Assembly: GCA_016700095.1 (NCBI GenBank)
Contig: CP065002.1
Location: forward strand, 1,124,145-1,188,144
Source: Candidatus Woesebacteria bacterium
GTDB taxonomy: Bacteria; Patescibacteriota; Microgenomatia; UBA8517
DNA: 64,000 nucleotides
Direction of reading: 5' to 3'
Below are positions 8,554-57,396 of this stretch, piece by piece. Within the stretch, counting starts at the first letter, position 1. Each line of letters opens with the position of its first letter. Under the pieces are notes generated by a model. It was not told the DNA's origin and searched no databases. It saw nothing but the letters and a program-made list of their open reading frames with translations. The position numbers and the translations under genes were made by a program.

Positions 8554-11211
8554 ATGATAAAATTTTTTATGGCATACCATGGACTTACCAATCAAGAAGC
8601 TTTACAAAAACAAAAAGATTACGGTTTTAATGAAATACAAGACTATTTAAAGATTACTCCTTTCCAAATACTTGTAAGACAAATTAAAAGTAATTACATT
8701 ATTTACCTCCTAACATGTGCTTCTATTGTTTCATTCATCGTCGGAAAAGATTTCACTGCATATACGATCCTTGCAGTTGTTGCAACGGTAATATTTACAG
8801 GATTTATTCAAGAATTCAAAGCGGAAGGTTCGATCTCAGCATTAAAGAAAATGTTAATGCCCATTACCATTGTTATGCGAGATGGTAAAAAAACTGAACT
8901 ACCATCAAGAGAAATTGTACCCGATGACATCCTGCTTTTGGGAAATGGTGAGAAAATTCCCGCCGATTGCATACTAGTTGATTCGTATGAATTAAAGATT
9001 AATGAAGCAGCATTAACCGGCGAGTCGACTGAAGTCACAAAAAGTACACTTAAATCAGATGCATCATCACCTACCGATGAAAATAAGATTTTTATGGGTA
9101 CGTATATTGTGAATGGAAGATGTGTGGCAAAAGTCCAACACACGGGTATGAATACTAAATTTGGCAGGATTGCACATCTGATTTCTTCAGCAGAGAAATC
9201 GTTCCCACTGCAAGAAAAAATAAACTATATCACAAAGTATATGGTGATAATCGCTATCACCATGGCTGGTGCCACAAGTACACTAATGATACTAAGGGCA
9301 GATACTCTGGATACGGCAACAATATTGGAAATTCTGGTTCTTGCAATCGCGATTGCCGTATCGGCTTTTCCGGAAGGATTACCTGTCGTACTGATATCAA
9401 CTCTTGCGGTGGGAGCCAAAAGGATGTCGGAAAAAGATGCAATTGTAAACAGAATGTCAATAATAGAAGCATTGGGCGAAACAACTGTTGTATGCTCGGA
9501 TAAAACCGGAACTATAACCAGAGGCGAAATGACAGTCAAAAAAATATTTACCGGAGACAATATATATGAAGTTGAAGGAAGTGGATTTGTCGCACACGGA
9601 AGAATTTTGAAAGATTCGGTTTCTGTTGATTTGAAAGATTCTCCCGAACTTAGACAATTAATAAAAGCAGGCGTGTTATGTACCGATGCAGAGATTGAAC
9701 GATCTGGAACCGATAATGAGTATACAACCATTGGTTCCCCAACCGAGGCGGCTTTGTTAGTACTGGGAGCCAAAACTAATATTTTCAAGGAATCATTTAA
9801 ATCACAAAGGACAAACGAAACACCATTTAGCTCGGAAAGGAAAATGATGTCGGTTCTCCACAAGGAAAACGGTACGTATACAGTATATGTTAAGGGAGCT
9901 CCCGAAATTGTATTGGAAAAATGTGAATACTATTTGGCTAATGGTAAAAAGACCAAACTAAAGAAAGACAAGTTAACTGAAATACTCCAAATACAAAAAG
10001 GCTTGTCGGGAAACGCTTATCGAACATTAGTCGTAGCATATAAAGATATTTCAAACGCCAATAGTTACAATGAAGATAATTTAATATTTTTGGGATTAGT
10101 TGCCATGGAGGATCCTCCACGGGAAAATGTCAAGGAGTCGATAGACATCGCGAAAAGAGCAGGAATTAGAGTTATCATGATAACAGGTGATAACAAAGAT
10201 ACTGCAGTATCAATTGCCCATCAAATCGGTTTAGTCGGAAATGTCATAACAGGAATAGAACTTGACGAAATGTCAGAACGTGAAGTGTCTCTTTCGGTAA
10301 AACACACCAGTATATTTGCCCGAGTACGACCTGATCATAAAATAAAAATAATATCCGCTCTCAAATCAAATGGAGAAATTGTCACAATGACAGGTGACGG
10401 AGTTAATGATGCACCGGCACTAAAAGCAGCACATGTTGGAGTAGCAATGGGTATTAACGGCACCGATGTTTCAAGGTCCGCGTCCGATTTAATACTTAGA
10501 AATGATAGTTTTTCTACAATAATCGATGCTATCGCAGAGGGTAGAAATATATTCAATAACTTACGTAAATTTGTTACATATCAGTTAAGTTGTAACTTTG
10601 CTGAACTCATTACAATTTTTGTAGGTGTACTCTTTGCCCCATTTTTCGGCTGGGAAATACCGGTACTTGTTTCGATACAGATTCTTTTTATGAATCTTGT
10701 TACCGACAATCTTCCTGCAATTACCCTTGGTCTTAATCCCACCTCGAAAGACATTATGTTGACTCCTCCTAGAAAAGGTTCGAAAATTCTAAACGGGATT
10801 CTAATAAAGTTATTAATCGTTACCGGAAGTACAATGGCAGCCTTAACACTTATTGCCTTCTATGTTTCATATAATTTGATTGATTACACAACTCAGACAA
10901 GTCGAACTATCGCATTGGTTACATTGATATTACTTGAAATAGTATTTGCTTTTGGTTTTAGATCATTTAGAAAAGCGACATTGACTAGATCACCATTTGT
11001 AAACAAATATTTAGTATACGCATCCGCAGTTTCACTAATTCTAACTTTTGCAATTATCTACACACCGTTAAATAAGTATTTTGAAACCGTCCCCGTCACT
11101 TTTGCCGGTTGGGCAATTGCAATATCTTTGATGTTACTTGGACTTGTAATCCACGATCTACTCAAGAAATTTAATTTAAGAAACTCAAGATATTTAGAAA
11201 GTATAAATTAA
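8554..11211 (+). CDS. P-type cation-transporting ATPase (type II, Ca2+/Mg2+-like).
   Basis: DKTGTIT phosphorylation motif, TGDN, GDGVNDAPAL hinge, 10 predicted TM helices, 885 aa. The true start is possibly the ATG at 8569 (MAYHGLT). Confidence 0.9.
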   Translation: MIKFFMAYHGLTNQEALQKQKDYGFNEIQDYLKITPFQILVRQIKSNYIIYLLTCASIVSFIVGKDFTAYTILAVVATVIFTGFIQEFKAEGSISALKKMLMPITIVMRDGKKTELPSREIVPDDILLLGNGEKIPADCILVDSYELKINEAALTGESTEVTKSTLKSDASSPTDENKIFMGTYIVNGRCVAKVQHTGMNTKFGRIAHLISSAEKSFPLQEKINYITKYMVIIAITMAGATSTLMILRADTLDTATILEILVLAIAIAVSAFPEGLPVVLISTLAVGAKRMSEKDAIVNRMSIIEALGETTVVCSDKTGTITRGEMTVKKIFTGDNIYEVEGSGFVAHGRILKDSVSVDLKDSPELRQLIKAGVLCTDAEIERSGTDNEYTTIGSPTEAALLVLGAKTNIFKESFKSQRTNETPFSSERKMMSVLHKENGTYTVYVKGAPEIVLEKCEYYLANGKKTKLKKDKLTEILQIQKGLSGNAYRTLVVAYKDISNANSYNEDNLIFLGLVAMEDPPRENVKESIDIAKRAGIRVIMITGDNKDTAVSIAHQIGLVGNVITGIELDEMSEREVSLSVKHTSIFARVRPDHKIKIISALKSNGEIVTMTGDGVNDAPALKAAHVGVAMGINGTDVSRSASDLILRNDSFSTIIDAIAEGRNIFNNLRKFVTYQLSCNFAELITIFVGVLFAPFFGWEIPVLVSIQILFMNLVTDNLPAITLGLNPTSKDIMLTPPRKGSKILNGILIKLLIVTGSTMAALTLIAFYVSYNLIDYTTQTSRTIALVTLILLEIVFAFGFRSFRKATLTRSPFVNKYLVYASAVSLILTFAIIYTPLNKYFETVPVTFAGWAIAISLMLLGLVIHDLLKKFNLRNSRYLESIN

Positions 11212-25781: not shown

Positions 25782-26198
25782 TTAGAAATCGCGAAAACTG
25801 CTTGCCCCAACAGAAATCGATGTTGCGTTTATGGTACCACTATCCGCTTTCGTTCCAATAACCATTACGCTTTCACCGACGGCAAGATCGTCTTTTGACC
25901 CTTGCGATGTTTTATTTATCACAGTTGAATCGGAGAATACTACAATATTGTTGCCATCTTCAGACTTTACTGTAAGTGTATTATCATCCCCGTTAATAAT
26001 TTCACCTGCTATCGGTCTATTGAATTGACCATTGTCGCTTCTTGCCTGCATTCCATTCGGTCTATTTACGCCATCTGGAAAATTACGACCGGATACATTT
26101 GTCAATTTACTTTTTTGGTACTGCATTCCTCCGACAAAAGCTAAAGTCCCAACTATTATTACCGATGTAAATATGAGTAAAATATTTTTCTTCATCAT
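25782..26198 (-). CDS. Secreted small protein (DUF5666-like beta-rich domain), last gene of the ABC-exporter operon.
   Basis: Signal peptide MMKKNILLIFTSVIIVGTLAF. SD GGGGGTGATAAAAG. Confidence 0.6.
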   Translation of the reverse strand: MMKKNILLIFTSVIIVGTLAFVGGMQYQKSKLTNVSGRNFPDGVNRPNGMQARSDNGQFNRPIAGEIINGDDNTLTVKSEDGNNIVVFSDSTVINKTSQGSKDDLAVGESVMVIGTKADSGTINATSISVGASSFRDF

Positions 26199-26212: not shown

Positions 26213-27436
26213 TTATTCATATCTCAACGCTTCAATGGGTTGTAAATTTGCTGCTTTTTTTGCGGGATACCATCCGAATACTATCCCAATTCCAACAGAT
26301 ACAATAAATGCCAGAATTACCGACTGCCATGAAATCACAAATACAGAATTGTTAGTTGTAGAATAAACAAAAAAACCAAATATCCCGGATATTATTCCAA
26401 TCACGCCACCGATAAAAGTCAAAATTATTGCTTCAACCAAAAATTGCTGGATTATTGTTTTATTTTTTGCACCTATTGCTTTACGTAATCCTATTTCTCT
26501 TGTTCGTTCTGTAACAGACATTAACATAATATTCATTATTCCGATTCCACCCACCAATAATGAGATTGCTGCAATTCCTGTCAGCATACTTGTGAAAGTT
26601 CCAGTTACCGCTGTCGCCGTTTCCAGAATATCCGCCTGGGACATAATCCTAAAGTCCGCATTATTAACATCTGAAATATTATGTCTATCCAACAGTAGAT
26701 ACCCAACTTCATTTTGCGCTTTGGTCATTACATCCTCGCTTTTTGCCTCAAGTGCTATTGATGTTAAATTTTTTACACCAAATACTTGTTTCTGAGCAGT
26801 GGTTAAAGGAATATATATGCGGTCGTCTTGATTATCCATACCGCTTACACCTTTTGATTTAGTTACACCGATAATTTTAAAGTTCTTACCATTAATTCTA
26901 ATTGTTTGTCCGATTGAACTAACTCCCTCGCCAAATAAATCTTCTTCCAAACTTGGCCCTATAACAGCAACTTTAGATATGCTAGATAAATTTTGTTCGG
27001 TAATAAAATTCCCCAATGAAAGTGTCAATTTTCTTGTATCAGCGTAAATTGGCTCTACTCCAATAACTTGGGTATTAGCATTATTCCTGCCAGCAACAAC
27101 TTGAGCTCTCGCTGAATACTCCGGCGAAACACTCTTTATCGTCGTTATTTGCGAAGAATTACGAATCGCCGAAGCATCTTCATTGGTCAAAGTAGTAGCT
27201 CCCCCTACGGCTCCTCGAACATTTCCGGATGTCGAAAAACCGGGAGTAATTGTTAATAAATTTGACCCTATTGATTGAATTTGAGACTGAACCGAAGCCT
27301 TACTTGCTTCACCCATAGAAATTAAAGTAATTACACTTCCTATTCCAATAACAATTCCAAGAATAGCCAATCCAGACCTCATCTTGTTAATGATCAAGTT
27401 TTTAAATCCATTTCTTAAGAGTTTGAATAATTTCAT
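26213..27436 (-). CDS. ABC transporter permease, MacB/FtsX family.
   Basis: N-terminal TM helix, large periplasmic domain, and three C-terminal TM helices with the FtsX signature. Confidence 0.85.
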   Translation of the reverse strand: MKLFKLLRNGFKNLIINKMRSGLAILGIVIGIGSVITLISMGEASKASVQSQIQSIGSNLLTITPGFSTSGNVRGAVGGATTLTNEDASAIRNSSQITTIKSVSPEYSARAQVVAGRNNANTQVIGVEPIYADTRKLTLSLGNFITEQNLSSISKVAVIGPSLEEDLFGEGVSSIGQTIRINGKNFKIIGVTKSKGVSGMDNQDDRIYIPLTTAQKQVFGVKNLTSIALEAKSEDVMTKAQNEVGYLLLDRHNISDVNNADFRIMSQADILETATAVTGTFTSMLTGIAAISLLVGGIGIMNIMLMSVTERTREIGLRKAIGAKNKTIIQQFLVEAIILTFIGGVIGIISGIFGFFVYSTTNNSVFVISWQSVILAFIVSVGIGIVFGWYPAKKAANLQPIEALRYE

Positions 27437-27444
27437 TGTATTAT

Positions 27445-28152
27445 TTATCTCACAATACGTTGCCGATGGTCTGTACTATCTTTTATAATTTTTCCGTCTA
27501 ATATATGTATTATCCGTTTAGCGTGTTCGGCGATTTCCTTTTCGTGAGTAATCATGACGATCGTATGTCCGCTATTATTTAATTTTTGAAATATTTCCAT
27601 AATCTCTTCGGCTTGTTGTGATGCAATGTTTCCCGTGGGTTCATCAGCCAGAATTATTGCCGGTTGCATAACAAGTGCTCGAGCTATAGCGACTCTTTGT
27701 TGTTGTCCACCTGATAGTTTATTGGGGGGATAACTAACACGATCTGACAAACCAACCAATTCAAGCATCTTACTGGCCCTTCTCACCTGTTCATTGTATT
27801 GAATATCGGCATAATCCATCGGAAGCATTACATTGTCAATTGCTGACGTGCGAGGTAAGAGGTTATATGCTTGAAATATAAACCCAATTTTTTTATTCCT
27901 GGTTTCTGCAAGTTCATCGTCAACCAATTTCGATACATTTTGTCCATCTAGAATATATTCACCTTTTGAAGGTAAATCTAAAACGCCAAGTATGTGCATA
28001 AGAGTCGATTTTCCACTACCGGATGGTCCCATGATGGCAACAAACTCTCCCCTTGCTATCTCCATCGTAATATTTGCCAATACTTCTGTCTTAATATCAC
28101 CTGTCTGATATGATTTTGATACATGCTTTATTGATATGATTGGTTTCGTCAT
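27445..28152 (-). CDS. ABC transporter ATP-binding protein (MacB/LolD-type).
   Basis: Walker [10 protein letters not shown], signature [15 protein letters not shown], Walker [10 protein letters not shown]. Confidence 0.92.
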
Positions 28153-28302
28153 ATTAAATACGTACTGATGCTATTTGTTAGGTATATTTACTCATGGTTT
28201 GTTTATTTCAGTAAACTGTCGTCGCATGCGTTTTATATAAAATAGATGTCACATATATTTTGAAAATTTAGCAACGTGGTGAATACGAAATCGCAACTAT
28301 TG

Positions 28303-29781
28303 TCAAAAGCCGGGAGGGCTACCGGCAGGCATTGATACTCCACCACTTCGCCCTGTGTTACTTGATCCTGATCTTCCAATACCGCTAAATGGAGAAGTAG
28401 TGTTTGTATCACTTGTTTCATTAATCGAAGTTGTTGCGACAATTACTTTGACTCCCTCAGCTAATCCGGTAAGAATTTCTATGTGAGTATCGTTCTCTAA
28501 TCCCGTTTCAACAACTACATCTTTCACACCACTTTCTTCAAGCACTTGTACAATACCTTGCCCATTAGTCGTTTGAACCGCGGTAAGCGGCACAACAATT
28601 TTTCCAGTTGAAATCCCCGTGATAATCTCGGCATTAACCGCCATATTTGGATATATTTCCAAAGAAACGGGATCAATAAGTACTGAAACAGGATACGAAG
28701 TTACACCTGATGAAACACTTCCGCTAGTTATTACGGCCAAAACTTTCCCTGTAAACGACTTGTCCTCATAAGCATCCAGGGTTAAATTTACTTTTTGGTT
28801 AGCTTTAACATTGACAATGTCTATCTCGGTCAGATTAACTGTCGCGATAAGCTGTCCCTTTGGGTTACTAATTTTTGCAGCTGTTTGACCTTCCACTATA
28901 GTCGCACCATTAGTCGTACTCGTTGATGTACTGGCTGATACAATAATACCTTCGGCTAATGCCAAATCGGTAATAACCCCATCTGAAGGCGCAATTATGG
29001 TTGCAGAATTTTCCTGATAATCTTTGAGTGCGGTTACAATTTTCGCATTAGCGCTGACAATGTCGGCATCCGAGTTTTTATACCGACTCTCCGCAACACT
29101 AAAGGCAAGTCTTTTTTGATCAAGCGTTTTAGTAATAATCATACGTTCATTGTCTGTGTATACTTCGCGGGTCAAGGGATTTGTGTTATCGCTGGTCATA
29201 TCGTCCAATGCTTCTTGGGCATCCAACACTTCCTGTCGGGCGTTCCACATTGCAATATCTGCCAACGACTTACCGTTTAATACTTCCAAGTAGTTTTCCT
29301 GTGCTTCTAAATAAGCTACCCATGCGGTAGACTGACGTTCTTTTGCGTAATCATCCAGATTAACCTCGGCAATTTTTTGACCTTTTGCTACAGTATCTCC
29401 ATTAACAACATAAACCTTACTTACTACACCGGAAGTTTTAGTTGTGACATTTGTGTAATTTCCCGAAGTAATCGTTCCGGTAGCTGAAATTGTGCTAATC
29501 AAGTTACCAGTGCTTGCGATCTGTGTCTCGTAAGTAACGCTTTCCTTATTTGCTGCACCAACAAAATGTTTAATCAATAGAACACATAAAACAATCAGCA
29601 TTATTGCAATGAGCTTTATTTTCCATGAAGATTGTTTTCCCCAATAAAAACACTTTATTACTTTATCTTTGATGTTTAAGAGGGTGAATTTTCTTCGTGA
29701 TTTTTTTGCAATATCTCGACGTCTTTTTTTGTTACTTTGCTTTTCTTTTTCCTTGTTTATATAAACTTTACTTTTGGACAT
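28303..29781 (-). CDS. HlyD/MacA-family periplasmic adaptor (membrane fusion protein).
   Basis: K/R-rich cytoplasmic N-tail, single TM helix, long coiled-coil/lipoyl/beta-barrel region, G/S-rich C-terminus. Confidence 0.8.
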   Translation of the reverse strand: MSKSKVYINKEKEKQSNKKRRRDIAKKSRRKFTLLNIKDKVIKCFYWGKQSSWKIKLIAIMLIVLCVLLIKHFVGAANKESVTYETQIASTGNLISTISATGTITSGNYTNVTTKTSGVVSKVYVVNGDTVAKGQKIAEVNLDDYAKERQSTAWVAYLEAQENYLEVLNGKSLADIAMWNARQEVLDAQEALDDMTSDNTNPLTREVYTDNERMIITKTLDQKRLAFSVAESRYKNSDADIVSANAKIVTALKDYQENSATIIAPSDGVITDLALAEGIIVSASTSTSTTNGATIVEGQTAAKISNPKGQLIATVNLTEIDIVNVKANQKVNLTLDAYEDKSFTGKVLAVITSGSVSSGVTSYPVSVLIDPVSLEIYPNMAVNAEIITGISTGKIVVPLTAVQTTNGQGIVQVLEESGVKDVVVETGLENDTHIEILTGLAEGVKVIVATTSINETSDTNTTSPFSGIGRSGSSNTGRSGGVSMPAGSPPGF

Positions 29782-29800
29782 GATTTATTCTAGATTTTGT

Positions 29801-29821
29801 TTCTTAAGATTAACTTAAGTC
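29801..29821 (-). promoter_or_regulatory. Putative response-regulator box (direct repeat CTTAAGTTAATCTTAAGAAAC in gene orientation) upstream of the ABC-exporter operon.
   Basis: Half-sites have 11-bp periodicity. The same box occurs at 32443..32463 and a variant at 30699..30720. Confidence 0.5.
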
Positions 29822-30075
29822 CTACTTACCAAGACTTAGAAATAGTTACCTTTGTACTTCTGGTGTTTAAAGTTGGTGTGTTTAAACCCAACAATATTCG
29901 TAATATATATTCTAATCACATTTCGTCTTGGCATCAGATAGTTGATCCTTAATTTATCGAGTCAATGATACTCCAAGGACTAAAAGGCTATGTGTCTAAT
30001 AAATGCTCAATTCCTACTTCGCTAGACCATTACACAGATAACCCACGGTTTTACAATTGTTTATTAACACAAATA

Positions 30076-30093
30076 GCTCCCTTTTTTGGGAGC
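30076..30093. terminator. Bidirectional hairpin GCTCCC-TTTTTT-GGGAGC between the two-component operon and the ABC-exporter promoter.
   Basis: Perfect 6-bp GC-rich stem with a T/A-rich loop and T-rich flanks on both strands. Confidence 0.5.
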
Positions 30094-30139
30094 CATTTGT
30101 TACCATATCTAATCGTTTTACAATCCGTGATTGTCAACG

Positions 30140-30652
30140 TTATATCTCAGGTTTTCCACCATTTTGAAAACCATGTCTTGGCATTCCGATTTCATCCATC
30201 AGATATTTAACGTCTATTCCGTTTGACGTTGCCCACCCTACAAGTTCATTGTGTTCACTTTCCCTCGCATTAATTCTCTCTTGATGGGTGGATTTTACTG
30301 CATCTTGACGGTTAGTATGCAATTCCTTGCGTTTCTCTAGTATTAACGTCTTTTGCTCTTGTGTAATTTTTCCGTCAGCGACTTCTTTATTTAATGACTC
30401 TTCAAACAGAGCTTCCATTTCGGCTTGTCTTTCCTCTCTACTTTCTTTCATCTTGGCTTCATATTCATTTCTGTCTTCATCAACAACAGCCTGAACATCG
30501 TCTTTTTCTAAGCCAAATTTCGTTGCAATTTTATCAACAAGGTTTGCCATATGATTTTCGTTTGTGTTTTCAGCAAAAACTGTTTTCGTTGAAATTAATG
30601 ACAACCCCAAAGCAAGCATGGCAAACGCGCTAAATAATAATGTCTTTCTCAT
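30140..30652 (-). CDS. Secreted coiled-coil protein with an LTxxQ-like motif (CpxP/Spy-like periplasmic stress protein, tentative).
   Basis: Signal peptide, ITQEQK (LTxxQ-like), helical charged repeats. The ATG at 30652 lies 5 nt after AGGAGGTGATA. The track start is a GTG inside the SD. Confidence 0.55.
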   Translation of the reverse strand: MRKTLLFSAFAMLALGLSLISTKTVFAENTNENHMANLVDKIATKFGLEKDDVQAVVDEDRNEYEAKMKESREERQAEMEALFEESLNKEVADGKITQEQKTLILEKRKELHTNRQDAVKSTHQERINARESEHNELVGWATSNGIDVKYLMDEIGMPRHGFQNGGKPEI

Positions 30653-30698
30653 AATTATCACCTCCTTTCATTTTCTTCTCTCAAGTTACGCCACTTTT

Positions 30699-30720
30699 CT
30701 TAATAAACACTTAATATAAG
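30699..30720 (-). promoter_or_regulatory. Third copy of the response-regulator box (ATTAAGTGTTTATTAAGAAAA in gene orientation) upstream of the CpxP-like gene.
   Basis: Same half-site spacing as the other two boxes. Confidence 0.4.
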
Positions 30721-30724
30721 AATT

Positions 30725-31750
30725 TTAGTTTGAGGATATCAGCGGTAATTCGACACAAATTGAAGTTCCCTTTCCCGGTTTACTTTCGGCTTTAATTGTA
30801 CCTCGGTGGTTTACAACGATACTTTTTGCTATCGCCAATCCAAGTCCAAATCCTTCGGTTTCTGATCTTGATTTCTCGGCTCTATAAAAACGATCAAATA
30901 TTTTGGGAAGGTCGCTTTTTGAAATCCCGATACCTTGATCTGTAATTTTTACATTTATGTTATCCTTATTACGTTCACCCTTAATGCTAACTTTAGTATT
31001 AGACTTACTATATTTAATTGCGTTGTCAATAATTATCACAAATAATTCTTTCAGTTCATCTGGATTTCCGAGTACTTTAACTCTGGGAACATTATCGATA
31101 AGTTTGATCGATTTTACGGTTGCTTGAGTTGTCAATTTCCGGATTGCCGAAGAAATATCATCTCCAATGAAATGCTTGACATGTCCTTCGCTTGTTTTTT
31201 CATGATGTACTTTAGTCAAATGAAGTAAGCTATTTACCAATATATTAATATCGTTAATTTCTTCCAAATTACTTTTTATTAAGCTTTTCGCGCTTTCTTT
31301 CGTCAAATTATTTTCGAGTAGTGCCGCTTCCATTTCTGCTTTTAGAGTCGCAATTGGAGTTCGCAGTTCATGGGATGCATCCGAGATAAATTGATTTTGT
31401 TCACCAATCATCTTCCCTATAGGCTTTAACGTTTTCCCGGAAAGGAAATATGATGCGCCTCCGGCAACGGCTAAAATTGCCATGTTAATTAATGCAAGAG
31501 AAACAACAAGTTGTTTTTTTTGATATTTTAGTTCTTCGGAACTAATTGTAGGCGGTAATCCCATCGGTCTTGGCGGAGCATTCTCGAATCGTTCAAATTG
31601 AAAGTCTCTAAGTCTGTCGTTTTGAGCTCGTGTAAATCTTTCAATCTGTCGTGAGACATTGCCGTATATTGAAATGCTGAAAAGTAAACTTACGAACATT
31701 AGAATAACTACATACCAAGCAGTTAGTTTTAGGCGTGCTAAGTTAAACAT
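30725..31750 (-). CDS. Sensor histidine kinase (HisKA + HATPase_c).
   Basis: H-box SHELRTPI, N/G1/G2 boxes (DQGIGI, GLGL), two N-terminal TM helices. Confidence 0.9.
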   Translation of the reverse strand: MFNLARLKLTAWYVVILMFVSLLFSISIYGNVSRQIERFTRAQNDRLRDFQFERFENAPPRPMGLPPTISSEELKYQKKQLVVSLALINMAILAVAGGASYFLSGKTLKPIGKMIGEQNQFISDASHELRTPIATLKAEMEAALLENNLTKESAKSLIKSNLEEINDINILVNSLLHLTKVHHEKTSEGHVKHFIGDDISSAIRKLTTQATVKSIKLIDNVPRVKVLGNPDELKELFVIIIDNAIKYSKSNTKVSIKGERNKDNINVKITDQGIGISKSDLPKIFDRFYRAEKSRSETEGFGLGLAIAKSIVVNHRGTIKAESKPGKGTSICVELPLISSN

Positions 31751-31751
31751 A

Positions 31752-32423
31752 TTAATTATCCAGTATTACATAACCAAATCCACGTATCGTTTTAATTAAT
31801 TGTGTGTCAAATGGTTTGTCTATTTTATCTCGAAGATGTTTGATGTGTACCTCAGTCGTGGTTGGCAGTATATCTGCATCATAATTCCAAACAGACTGTA
31901 CAATCTGATCTCTTGTGACAGTCATATTTTTGTAGCGCATCAGATATTCTAATATCGAGAATTCTTTTAGTGACAACTGAATTGTTCTACCGGCTCTTGT
32001 GACAATGAAGTTTACCGGATCTAGCGTGAGATCTTTAATTGTTAGCACATTTTCCTGATTCTTGGACGATCTTCTAAGTAATGCTCTTACTCTTGCGAAT
32101 AGCTCTTCAAACGAAAACGGTTTTACCAAATAATCATCCGCTCCTGCGTCTAAACCGTTTATTTTATCTTTTGTTTGCCCTAACGCAGTTAACATAATAA
32201 TTGGAGTCGCAATTCTTTCATTCCTTACTTTTTTACTTATCTCAATTCCGCTGATCTTTGGAAGCATCACATCAAGAATGATCACATCATACTTTTCTCC
32301 AATCGCTAAATCTAAACCTTGCTCGCCGTCATATACAACATCAACTGTATATTTTTGTGTAATTAATGCGCGTTTTATCGCGTTGGCAAGTTTCTCTTCA
32401 TCCTCAACAAGTAGTATCCGCAT
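31752..32423 (-). CDS. OmpR/PhoB-family response regulator.
   Basis: Receiver domain (LLVEDE, IILDVMLP) plus a winged-helix trans_reg_C domain. Confidence 0.92.
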   Translation of the reverse strand: MRILLVEDEEKLANAIKRALITQKYTVDVVYDGEQGLDLAIGEKYDVIILDVMLPKISGIEISKKVRNERIATPIIMLTALGQTKDKINGLDAGADDYLVKPFSFEELFARVRALLRRSSKNQENVLTIKDLTLDPVNFIVTRAGRTIQLSLKEFSILEYLMRYKNMTVTRDQIVQSVWNYDADILPTTTEVHIKHLRDKIDKPFDTQLIKTIRGFGYVILDN

Positions 32424-32442
32424 GAAGCCATATTATAAACTT

Positions 32443-32463
32443 TTTCTTAAGATTAACTTAATA
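32443..32463 (-). promoter_or_regulatory. Response-regulator box upstream of its own operon (autoregulation site), abutting a TATAAT box.
   Basis: ATTAAGTTAATCTTAAGAAAA in gene orientation, an 18/18 core identity with the box at 29801. Confidence 0.5.
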
Positions 32464-32767
32464 TTTAATTTGAGTTAATGTCACTTAGTTGAAAAACCGA
32501 AAATATTTAAGTTCTTTCTATCATTCCTCCTTTTCCACAAGTATTACAAGTTATTGTCAGCTTGGCTACTCTTCCTAATTGTTGCGTTTCCCTAGTACCC
32601 GTTATACCTAGACATGGACGTCCACTTCCTGCTCTTATGTGTTCCAGAATTTCAACTTACGTTTTGGTATTCTCACCATCTGACCCAGAACTACTATATT
32701 TATGTGTAACTTAAGTACTATGTAAGATCTACAGGAAAGCTTCCAAAAGATTGCTATAATATTTTAT

Positions 32768-33829
32768 ATGGCAAGACTTACCTACGATGAATTAATAAAA
32801 AAGCATACAAGAATATTAAAAGGTCTCCAGCAGAAATCGGGTTTGTTTCTCGCCTCAAAAAAGAACGTCGAAACAGGGTACGACAAATCATGGTTAAGAG
32901 ATAATTTCTATGAAACCTTAGCATTTGAAGTAATTGGCGATTGGCATACGGTAGAGAAAACCTATCGTGCAATACTCAATGTCTTTCTTACTCACGAAAA
33001 GAAAATTGATTGGGCTATTGCCAATAAACCAACCGAAAGCTTTCAATACATTCACGCCAGATTTCACCCCGATAACTTTGGTGAATTCTGGGAATCCTGG
33101 GGCAACAAACAAAACGACGCTGTTGGCTGTATTCTTTTTCGCATTGGTGTTTTGGAGACTAGACTCAAAAGATCAATCATTAAAACACCGGATCACATTA
33201 GAATTGTCAATAAGTTGGTTAAATATCTGGAAGCAATTGAATATTGGAAAGACAGAGATTCGGGAATGTGGGAGGAAGAAGAAGAGCTTCACGCTTCAAG
33301 TGTCGGAGCATGTGTTGCAGGTCTTAAATCCATTTCGCAAGTTTCCACCATCGCGGTTCCCGTCTTATTAATAAAGAAAGGTGAAGATGCACTCAACAAT
33401 TTGTTACCCCGAGAATCAGACCGTAAATTTGTTGATTTATCACTTCTTTCACTTATATGGCCTTATGAAATCATCGACGAAAAGCAAAAACTCAAGATTC
33501 TCGAAAACATTGAATATCACCTTAAACGTGAGCGAGGAATTGTCAGATACAAAGGTGACAAGTACTACAATAAAAACAAAGACGGTGTAAGCGAGGAAGC
33601 AGAGTGGACTTTCGGACTTTCATGGCTTGCAATAATATACGAAAAAGGAGGAAACAAAGAAAAAGCCCAGGAATTACTCAAAGATCTTATCGCAATTGAT
33701 ACTCCGGAAGGCATGCCGGAATTATATTTTTCAAATTCTCCCGAGTTTAATGAAAACATTCCGCTTGGTTGGAGCGAATCGCTTTTCATCATTGCACTTT
33801 TTGACATGAATGAAAGATCTGAAAAGTGA
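32768..33829 (+). CDS. GH15-family (glucoamylase/trehalase-like) (alpha/alpha)6-barrel glycoside hydrolase, catalytic domain only.
   Basis: SWLRDNFYE and GMWEEEEE (the GH15 general-acid WEE motif) in correct order and spacing. Confidence 0.75.
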   Translation: MARLTYDELIKKHTRILKGLQQKSGLFLASKKNVETGYDKSWLRDNFYETLAFEVIGDWHTVEKTYRAILNVFLTHEKKIDWAIANKPTESFQYIHARFHPDNFGEFWESWGNKQNDAVGCILFRIGVLETRLKRSIIKTPDHIRIVNKLVKYLEAIEYWKDRDSGMWEEEEELHASSVGACVAGLKSISQVSTIAVPVLLIKKGEDALNNLLPRESDRKFVDLSLLSLIWPYEIIDEKQKLKILENIEYHLKRERGIVRYKGDKYYNKNKDGVSEEAEWTFGLSWLAIIYEKGGNKEKAQELLKDLIAIDTPEGMPELYFSNSPEFNENIPLGWSESLFIIALFDMNERSEK

Positions 33830-56956: not shown

Positions 56957-57396
56957 TGTTTGGTATCAATTATTATCGTAACTGGACCGTCAAGTGTTGT
57001 GTTAATTTGCATATATTCACCAAACTTGCCAGTCTTGACGTTTATACCATATCCAACTAGTTTGTCAACAAAATACCGATATATTTTTTCGGCATGTGAT
57101 GAATCGGCTGCATCAACAAACGACGGTCGATTACCCTTTTTAGTATTGGCAAAAAGCGTAAATTGAGAAACTACCAAAACCGACTCGTTCGCATCTATTA
57201 AAGACAGATTCATTTTACCCTCACTATCTGAAATTATTCTTAACTTCACAATCTTTTCCGCAAGGATATTAGCATCAATCACTGTGTCGTTTTGAGTAAT
57301 ACCCACAAGTATAAAAAACCCTTTATTAATTTCACCAACAACTTCATCGTCGACACTAACCGATGCTTCAAGTACTCTTTGTACGACAATTTTCAT
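56953..57396 (-). CDS. dtd: D-aminoacyl-tRNA deacylase.
   Basis: MKIVVQRV..., SQFTL motif (VVSQFTLFANTKKGNRPSF), 147 aa. Confidence 0.92.
   Translation of the reverse strand: MKIVVQRVLEASVSVDDEVVGEINKGFFILVGITQNDTVIDANILAEKIVKLRIISDSEGKMNLSLIDANESVLVVSQFTLFANTKKGNRPSFVDAADSSHAEKIYRYFVDKLVGYGINVKTGKFGEYMQINTTLDGPVTIIIDTKQ

Follow-up and report, generated by a model that had tools for sequence, protein, structure and literature searches.

A TTAAG direct repeat as the probable operator of a two-component, secreted-protein and exporter regulon in Candidatus Woesebacteria

Within a 64-kb stretch of a Candidatus Woesebacteria bacterium genome (contig CP065002.1, positions 1,124,145 to 1,188,144; hereafter the window, with positions counted from its first base), the same short direct repeat precedes three neighbouring minus-strand units, which encode an OmpR/PhoB-family response regulator with its sensor kinase, a small secreted protein, and a MacB-type ATP-binding cassette (ABC) exporter. 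We suggest, with a probability of roughly 0.8, that these boxes are the class II activator site of the adjacent response regulator, which would positively autoregulate its own operon and switch on the secreted accessory protein and the exporter, probably in defence of the cell envelope. A preliminary description of this DNA had proposed that the adjacent OmpR-type regulator acts on an 11-bp repeat, autoregulating itself and controlling exporter and secreted protein, and comparative genomics is strongly supportive of that core idea: the same box stands before three classes of gene in a fixed 10-nt register to the -10, it co-occurs with a particular recognition helix, and the window's copies rank highest when scored with a matrix built elsewhere. 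About a dozen related genomes carry the box at the corresponding promoters, which makes it very likely that the adjacent regulator uses it as its activator site.

The boxes conform to TTAAGT-N5-TTAAGAAA, searched as TTAAGTNNNNNTTAAGAAA, and are located as follows.

29800..29818, minus strand: box 1, TTAAGTTAATCTTAAGAAA, upstream of the exporter operon; exact pattern match
32443..32461, minus strand: box 2, TTAAGTTAATCTTAAGAAA, upstream of the regulator-kinase operon; predicted to lie at about -38 to -20
30696..30714, minus strand: box 3, TTAAGTGTTTATTAAGAAA, 10 nt beyond the stop codon of the kinase gene, preceding the gene for the small secreted protein

A pattern scan of the window returns exactly these three matches, all on the minus strand, and no others, while 100 dinucleotide-preserving shuffles of the window contain no match to the extended motif. 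The three cluster within 2.7 kb, each on the gene strand and upstream of the first gene of its unit. Boxes 1 and 2 are an identical 19-mer, spacer included (TTTCTTAAGATTAACTTAA on the plus strand). The preliminary description was right that an exact repeat occurs at these two sites and that a third copy exists, but it gave the former as an 18-mer at 29801-29818 and 32443-32460, one base out of register, and the latter at 30699-30720. Its figure of 20 to 40 bp to the first start codon agrees with our measurements from motif end to start codon, which are 18 nt for the exporter's adaptor gene (ATG 29781), 19 nt for the regulator gene (ATG 32423) and 43 nt for the small-protein gene (ATG 30652).

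Taken by itself, the bare core is a weak signal. With up to one mismatch, TTAAG-N6-TTAAG has 15 matches in the window against 12 expected, and an exact bare core (10 nt) should arise by chance about 0.5 times per 64 kb, as estimated from the window's base composition. What makes the boxes significant is, accordingly, the extended motif together with their clustering and uniform orientation and, most of all, their conservation in other genomes. When a position weight matrix (PWM) built from other genomes only is run across the 64 kb, the window boxes take ranks 1 to 3, with scores of 20.5 for box 2, 19.9 for box 3 and 18.3 for box 1. A fourth site at 57243 on the minus strand scores 17.9; it lies within a 147-residue open reading frame (ORF), presumably a D-aminoacyl-tRNA deacylase, and was set aside as a chance match since shuffles score equally high. 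A near-box, TTAAGT-N5-GTAAGA at 32711-32726 on the plus strand, faces a divergent GH15-like gene from within the intergenic region common to that gene and the regulator gene; it has a PWM score of 7.2, lacks a -10 at N10 and is probably also due to chance. An Rfam scan of positions 29000-33000 found no RNA element at E<=1.

The boxes are held at a constant distance from a putative -10 element. The preliminary description had this hexamer overlapping or abutting the motif; at all three window boxes it is instead found downstream, exactly 10 nt after the proximal TTAAG.

32430..32435, minus strand: -10 of the regulator promoter, TAATAT, overlapping TATAAT at 32432-32437; ATG 6 nt downstream
30683..30688, minus strand: -10 of the small-protein promoter, TAACTT, at N10 spacing; leader of about 24 nt with GGAGGTG at 30659-30665
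29787..29792, minus strand: -10 of the exporter promoter, TAGAAT; ATG 5 nt downstream

The same register emerges from an alignment of 24 sites (three from the window and 21 from relatives) that were picked by the core repeat alone. T is found at +26 in 20/24, A at +27 in 21/24 and T at +31 in 20/24, which amounts to TAnnnT at N10, and the columns beside the repeat and the -10 are nearly information-free, with unconserved flanks. With the -10 set at -12 to -7, the 16-bp repeat spans about -38 to -23. No usable -35 was found at the boxes, where the half-sites would leave spacers of 20 and 9 nt to the -10; because neither half-site is spaced to serve as a -35, the promoters look activator-dependent. 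Lack of a -35 also explains why a consensus promoter scan of the window did not call the three box promoters.

In class II activation by OmpR/PhoB-family proteins, a phosphorylated head-to-tail dimer recruits RNA polymerase, and at the pho box of PhoB the -35 gives way to a direct repeat with half-sites 11 bp apart, about 10 bp above the -10. The window box has this type of layout: an 11-bp direct repeat in the -35 region, about 10 bp above the -10, and no canonical -35. Its likeness to the pho box lies in the general spacing of repeat and -10; half-site sequence and regulon are different.

The comparative evidence comes from 117 loci around relatives of the regulator, which were taken from genome and metagenome collections, and from a further, close set of about 130 kb. 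This close set holds the contexts of 11 distinct relatives from Microgenomates, whose regulators are 65-72% identical to that of the window. At the regulator's own promoter the box is exact in 10 of the 11 and has one mismatch in the eleventh, and the other two gene classes are preceded by it as well.

Upstream of the regulator gene: exact box in L118, L119, L121/122, L123/124, L125, L126, L128, L129, L130 and L131; one mismatch in L127
Upstream of the small-protein gene: exact box in L001, L002, L119, L123, L125 and L130; one mismatch in none
Upstream of the adaptor gene: exact box in L119, L123, L126 and L128; one mismatch in L118 and L121/122

All box matches in the close loci are on the gene strand, those on the minus strand being mirror matches of the palindromic CTTAAG. 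Across the roughly 130 kb of close loci there are 24 distinct gene-strand boxes; loci with distant regulators, 1.07 Mb in all, yield 2, of which the one in L074 also belongs to a regulator promoter with its -10 at N10. The motif is therefore not frequent at random positions, the outcome by which the preliminary description said its reading would be refuted. Gene order is likewise maintained: regulator, kinase, (small protein), adaptor, ABC ATPase, MacB/FtsX permease and DUF5666 gene follow one another in L118, L119, L122, L123, L126 and L128, and in the more distant L004/L046 the exporter genes still adjoin the regulator. Extra boxes with a -10 at N10 were seen in L125 (6691-6706, before a short uncalled ORF right after the kinase gene) and in L130 (10239-10254, before a Shine-Dalgarno-led gene at 10265), from which it follows that the regulon has additional lineage-specific members.

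The box also tracks the DNA-reading surface of the regulator, which is encoded together with its kinase.

31752..32423, minus strand: OmpR/PhoB-family response regulator, 223 residues (Pfam Response_reg 7.7e-30, Trans_reg_C 1.8e-23)
30725..31750, minus strand: sensor histidine kinase, 341 residues (Pfam HisKA 5.6e-11, HATPase_c 8.4e-28)

In the regulator, the receiver domain (Response_reg, residues 3-113) has the acidic pocket (E7/D8), the phospho-acceptor aspartate D51 (in IILDVMLP) and the conserved T79 and K101 present in the translation, and a winged-helix domain follows (Trans_reg_C, residues 145-219). The closest solved relative is DrrD (1kgs), aligned at full length at 2.3e-61; among NCBIfam models RppA and the CopR subfamily score best without reaching cut-off, and those for PhoB fall far short of theirs. 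A protein labelled Candidatus Woesebacteria (P0001) is 100% identical, and more than 100 relatives at 63-74% identity are from Microgenomates-type bacteria of the Candidate Phyla Radiation (CPR). The kinase, as read from its translation, has two membrane segments flanking an extracellular loop of about 50 residues, and a Pfam scan gave no HAMP domain match. A recognition helix of the form LPxTVEVH(I/M)KHLRDK(I/V)D is common to the regulators of box-bearing loci; at 42-50% identity the helices are different, the box is missing and the regulator genes are preceded by other repeats of their own. Two intermediate loci, L001 (59% identity) and L002 (54%), have divergent recognition helices; their own promoters carry TTCAG twice and CTTAG twice, respectively, in the same register (N6, then N8-9 to TATAAT), so the spacing is kept more strictly than the half-site sequence itself.

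Put together, these features suggest the following course of events. The kinase would phosphorylate the regulator, which would then bind the two TTAAG half-sites, 11 bp or one helical turn apart, as a head-to-tail dimer. Occupying the place of the -35 (about -38 to -23) and ending 10 nt before a TAnnnT -10, the repeat would position the bound regulator to recruit RNA polymerase by class II activation, as at PhoB pho boxes and CiaR boxes. One promoter of the putative regulon would drive the regulator-kinase operon itself, giving positive autoregulation from a leaderless mRNA; another, just downstream of the kinase, would drive a strongly translated small secreted helical protein; and the third would drive a leaderless operon for the adaptor, ABC ATPase, MacB-FtsX permease and DUF5666 protein, a YknXYZ-like exporter. 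This exporter is housed in a cell without an outer membrane, and the likely role of the whole would be cell-envelope defence or detoxification upon an extracytoplasmic signal.

Such an arrangement has close precedents. In streptococci, the CiaR box of the CiaRH system reads NTTAAG-N5-TTTAAG, is followed after 10 nt by TATAAT, and is activating (PMC3091779). It shares with the window box the TTAAG core, the 11-bp head-to-tail period, the 10 nt to the -10 and, as predicted for the window, an OmpR-family activator with an envelope-related regulon (PMC3091779). The two differ in their flanking bases, however, as the base before the first window-type TTAAG is C in 12/24 sites, and before the second there is no preference and the T is not conserved. 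The recognition helices, TTEVHIKHLRDKI in the window and VVEVYVSKVRKKL in CiaR, differ at 9/13 positions and are identical at 4/13; the CiaR helix VVEVYVSK(V/I)RKKL is absent from the window regulator, whose best models are DrrD, RppA and those of CopR type. The targets of CiaR are small RNAs and HtrA, whereas the regulator here is predicted to control a MacB-type exporter together with a small secreted protein, and the window system further departs from CiaR in that two of its three transcripts are apparently leaderless and its host is a CPR bacterium. Judged from sequence, the window box would work like a CiaR box, but its regulator is not a CiaR orthologue.

Two further sites bear comparison by their DNA. 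The OmpR-family pair BAS0540-BAS0541 of Bacillus anthracis uses NTTAAG-N5-TTTAAG, binds it in gel shifts and is autoregulated, and its predicted regulon includes the membrane-fusion-protein (adaptor) gene BAS5106 (PMC4938410). The box consensus, a putatively autoregulated OmpR-family regulator and an adaptor gene as target are alike in the window, a resemblance of box and regulon; the remaining regulon members differ, and no conserved small secreted protein is reported there. In Staphylococcus aureus, the SaeR site GTTAA-N6-GTTAA is bound by a phosphorylated OmpR-family regulator, and the sae operon encodes small auxiliary proteins (PMC5083920). The TTAA-core direct repeat, its 11-bp period and the small accessory proteins have parallels in the window, but the conserved G is on the opposite side of the TTAA and SaeR controls virulence factors.

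Several considerations count against activation by the adjacent regulator. We infer regulator binding, activation, the transcription starts, the physiological signal and the exporter substrate from sequence, and the motif scan of the organism's own genome covers 64 kb of about 1.27 Mb (5%). The CiaR precedent serves as analogy only, because the recognition helices differ at 9/13 positions, and the TTCAG and CTTAG repeats of L001 and L002 suggest that half-site specificity is looser than the consensus implies. The repeat also overlaps the core promoter, and so could in principle repress: the same regulator would then bind the box as a repressor, its occupancy of -38 to -23 blocking RNA polymerase, and the genes would come on upon its release. 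Some OmpR-family regulators, CiaR included, do repress at a minority of promoters, and autoregulated two-component operons of such geometry (PhoB, PhoP, CiaR) are typically positively autoregulated. We consider repression improbable here, as the promoters, with no usable -35 at spacers of 20 and 9 nt, look activator-dependent, and as the rigid N10 register of the 24 sites fits polymerase recruitment and would be needless for a steric block. In CiaR boxes, too, this register goes with activation (PMC3091779).

It is less probable still that the repeat is read by some other factor, either another response regulator encoded elsewhere in the genome or an alternative sigma factor, and that the two-component neighbourhood is a coincidence. 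The link between protein and DNA is drawn indirectly, 5% of the genome is in view, and L001 and L002 still have TTAAG boxes before the small-protein gene with their divergent helices. Yet across varying neighbourhoods the box stays at the regulator's own promoter (10 of 11 relatives exact, one with a single mismatch) and is accompanied by one particular recognition helix; head-to-tail repeats of 11 bp are characteristic of OmpR/PhoB dimers, and the -10 is of the housekeeping TAnnnT type and not of the extracytoplasmic function (ECF) type. Least credible of all are chance AT-rich repeats or remnants of local duplication without regulatory function. A genome of 36% G+C, in which about 0.5 bare cores are expected per 64 kb and one-mismatch matches stand at background, does lend itself to such repeats, and the site at 57243 (PWM 17.9) shows that a high score can be reached in a coding region, as it is in shuffles. 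The extended motif is nevertheless found in no shuffle, its position, orientation and register are conserved in at least 12 genomes amid randomised flanking bases, and the roughly 100-fold enrichment (24 in 130 kb versus 2 in 1.07 Mb) means that the comparative data refute chance in practice.

If the boxes are indeed activator sites of the adjacent regulator, they would be mechanistically ordinary, an OmpR/PhoB activator box with positive autoregulation that is nearly a copy of the CiaR box. As the arrangement is the textbook OmpR/PhoB one, it extends known biology to a new lineage and does not change it. To our knowledge, gene regulation in CPR bacteria (Patescibacteria) is almost unexplored, since most members are uncultivated, and Microgenomates possess very few regulators; our literature search on Microgenomates, two-component systems and MacB found no paper naming Microgenomates among those listed. 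The value of the present result is a clean regulon prediction in an uncultivated lineage, with no mechanistic surprise, and one that can be tested in vitro: a regulator, a 16-bp operator in fixed register to the -10, and a three-promoter regulon across many Microgenomates. A bolder picture is possible, though we regard it as doubtful, in which the two-component system, TTAAG box, small secreted protein and MacB exporter constitute a signature envelope-defence regulon of Microgenomates. The small protein might then belong to an unrecognised accessory family with a kinase-feedback or chaperone role, parallel to CpxP and SaeP in function and unrelated in sequence, and the near-identity to the CiaR, BAS0540 and SaeR sites might reflect an ancient TTAAG-reading OmpR branch tied to envelope stress and to adaptor/ABC exporters.

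The exporter operon consists of four genes.

28303..29781, minus strand: membrane-anchored periplasmic adaptor (membrane fusion protein, MacA/YknX-like), 492 residues (Pfam HlyD_D23 1.3e-12, HlyD_3)
27445..28152, minus strand: ABC ATPase subunit, 235 residues (Pfam ABC_tran 2.8e-34)
26213..27436, minus strand: MacB-type permease, 407 residues (Pfam MacB_PCD 3.9e-44, FtsX 3.9e-23)
25782..26198, minus strand: DUF5666 protein, 138 residues, with an N-terminal hydrophobic segment (DUF5666 1.2e-05, just below cut-off); the operon's last gene

A MacB_PCD and one FtsX domain in the permease, a separate ABC ATPase and an adaptor in the same operon mark this as a MacB-type exporter. The permease matches NCBIfam MacB at 1.4e-71, aligned over the permease half; the adaptor matches RND_mfp (1.8e-25) and MacA (1e-15), both below cut-off, and its orthologues in relatives match YknX barrel domains. 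HssRS-HrtBA, PhoPQ-MacAB and BceRS-BceAB are cases in which a two-component system switches on a MacB-type ABC system that adjoins it or is dedicated to it (PMC11237747; PMC5985334). The window exporter has the Gram-positive layout of YknXYZ, with an adaptor, an ATPase and a four-helix MacB permease, and differs from HrtBA, which has no adaptor. The Bce module combines a ten-helix BceB bearing a large extracellular domain with an intramembrane-sensing kinase nearly devoid of an extracellular loop (PMC5985334), and is ruled out here by the 407-residue permease with its single FtsX domain and by the kinase loop of about 50 residues. The DUF5666 accessory gene, which also directly follows the permease gene in L004/L046, L122, L126 and L128, is without a counterpart in YknXYZ or in the three systems above, and so is the small secreted protein.

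An untranslated gap of 150 nt (28153-28302), without a Shine-Dalgarno sequence, separates the adaptor stop from the ABC ATPase start, and their counterparts in relatives overlap or are separated by 3-8 nt; the gap could hold an internal promoter or be the decayed 3' end of the adaptor gene. Above box 1 there are two degenerate half-sites.

29825..29829, minus strand: GTAAG, 11 bp upstream of the distal TTAAG of box 1 and roughly in phase
29835..29839, minus strand: CTAAG, 10 bp further upstream and roughly in phase

These could provide the exporter promoter with a second dimer site of lower strength, a speculative suggestion since they were not seen in relatives. The regulator and exporter boxes of one genome can have the same 6-nt spacer, which is TTAATC in the window (29805-29810 and 32448-32453) and CAAAAC in L119 (4966-4971 and 7229-7234), and spacers vary between genomes. 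Such identity within a genome suggests that the spacer contributes to binding or that the sites evolve in concert.

The second target is an unnamed family, and with it our analysis defines a small unannotated secreted protein family that travels with the system.

30140..30652, minus strand: small secreted all-helical protein, 170 residues, with a signal peptide
30076..30093, strand unassigned: GC-rich hairpin GCTCCC-N6-GGGAGC from a terminator scan, a likely terminator after the small-protein gene

Homologues hold the same position in relatives (alignment A1), and only 10 database relatives were found. The preliminary description had called this protein CpxP-like, a label that gains no support from Pfam, PDB sequences or Foldseek. 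Pfam has no family match for the protein or its family (LTXXQ/CpxP in 0/14 members at E<=1), a search of PDB sequences with a family profile lists none of CpxP, Spy and ZraP at E<=10, and the AlphaFold model, four helices with a confident core (mean predicted local distance difference test score 76), has no Foldseek match in the PDB below E=1. A single stretch, KITQEQK, resembles LTXXQ by eye. The likeness to CpxP, Spy and ZraP is one of context only, namely a small secreted helical protein beside, and apparently controlled by, an envelope two-component system. The gene is among the few in the window with a strong Shine-Dalgarno sequence (AAAGGAGGTGA), which is kept in L001, L002, L119, L125 and L130, and its conservation suggests that the small protein is highly translated.

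The other two transcripts appear leaderless, as the regulator and adaptor ATGs lie 5-6 nt past the -10 and thus imply leaderless mRNAs; the same geometry is found at most relatives' regulator genes. In a rough survey of 48 long window ORFs, whose start codons were not refined, TAnnnT lay 4-9 nt before the first possible start, without a Shine-Dalgarno sequence, in 12/48, and a Shine-Dalgarno-like sequence was seen in 5/48. The GH15-like gene (ATG 32768) has TATAAT at 32755-32760, 7 nt ahead of its ATG. Leaderless-like geometry seems common in this genome, and points to widespread leaderless transcription.

Conserved repeats were also seen upstream of the regulator gene in other clades of the 117 loci. 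In L011, L047, L048, L055 and L088, TTTCATAAAAT occurs twice, 22 bp apart, about 60-25 nt before the regulator ATG; L003, L010, L057 and L062 have the conserved upstream repeat GAGTGAATTTTAAT; and the Saccharimonadia-type loci L013, L016, L052, L054 and L097 carry CAGxxTATCAGCAGATTTT. These repeats are candidate operators for the regulators of their respective clades.

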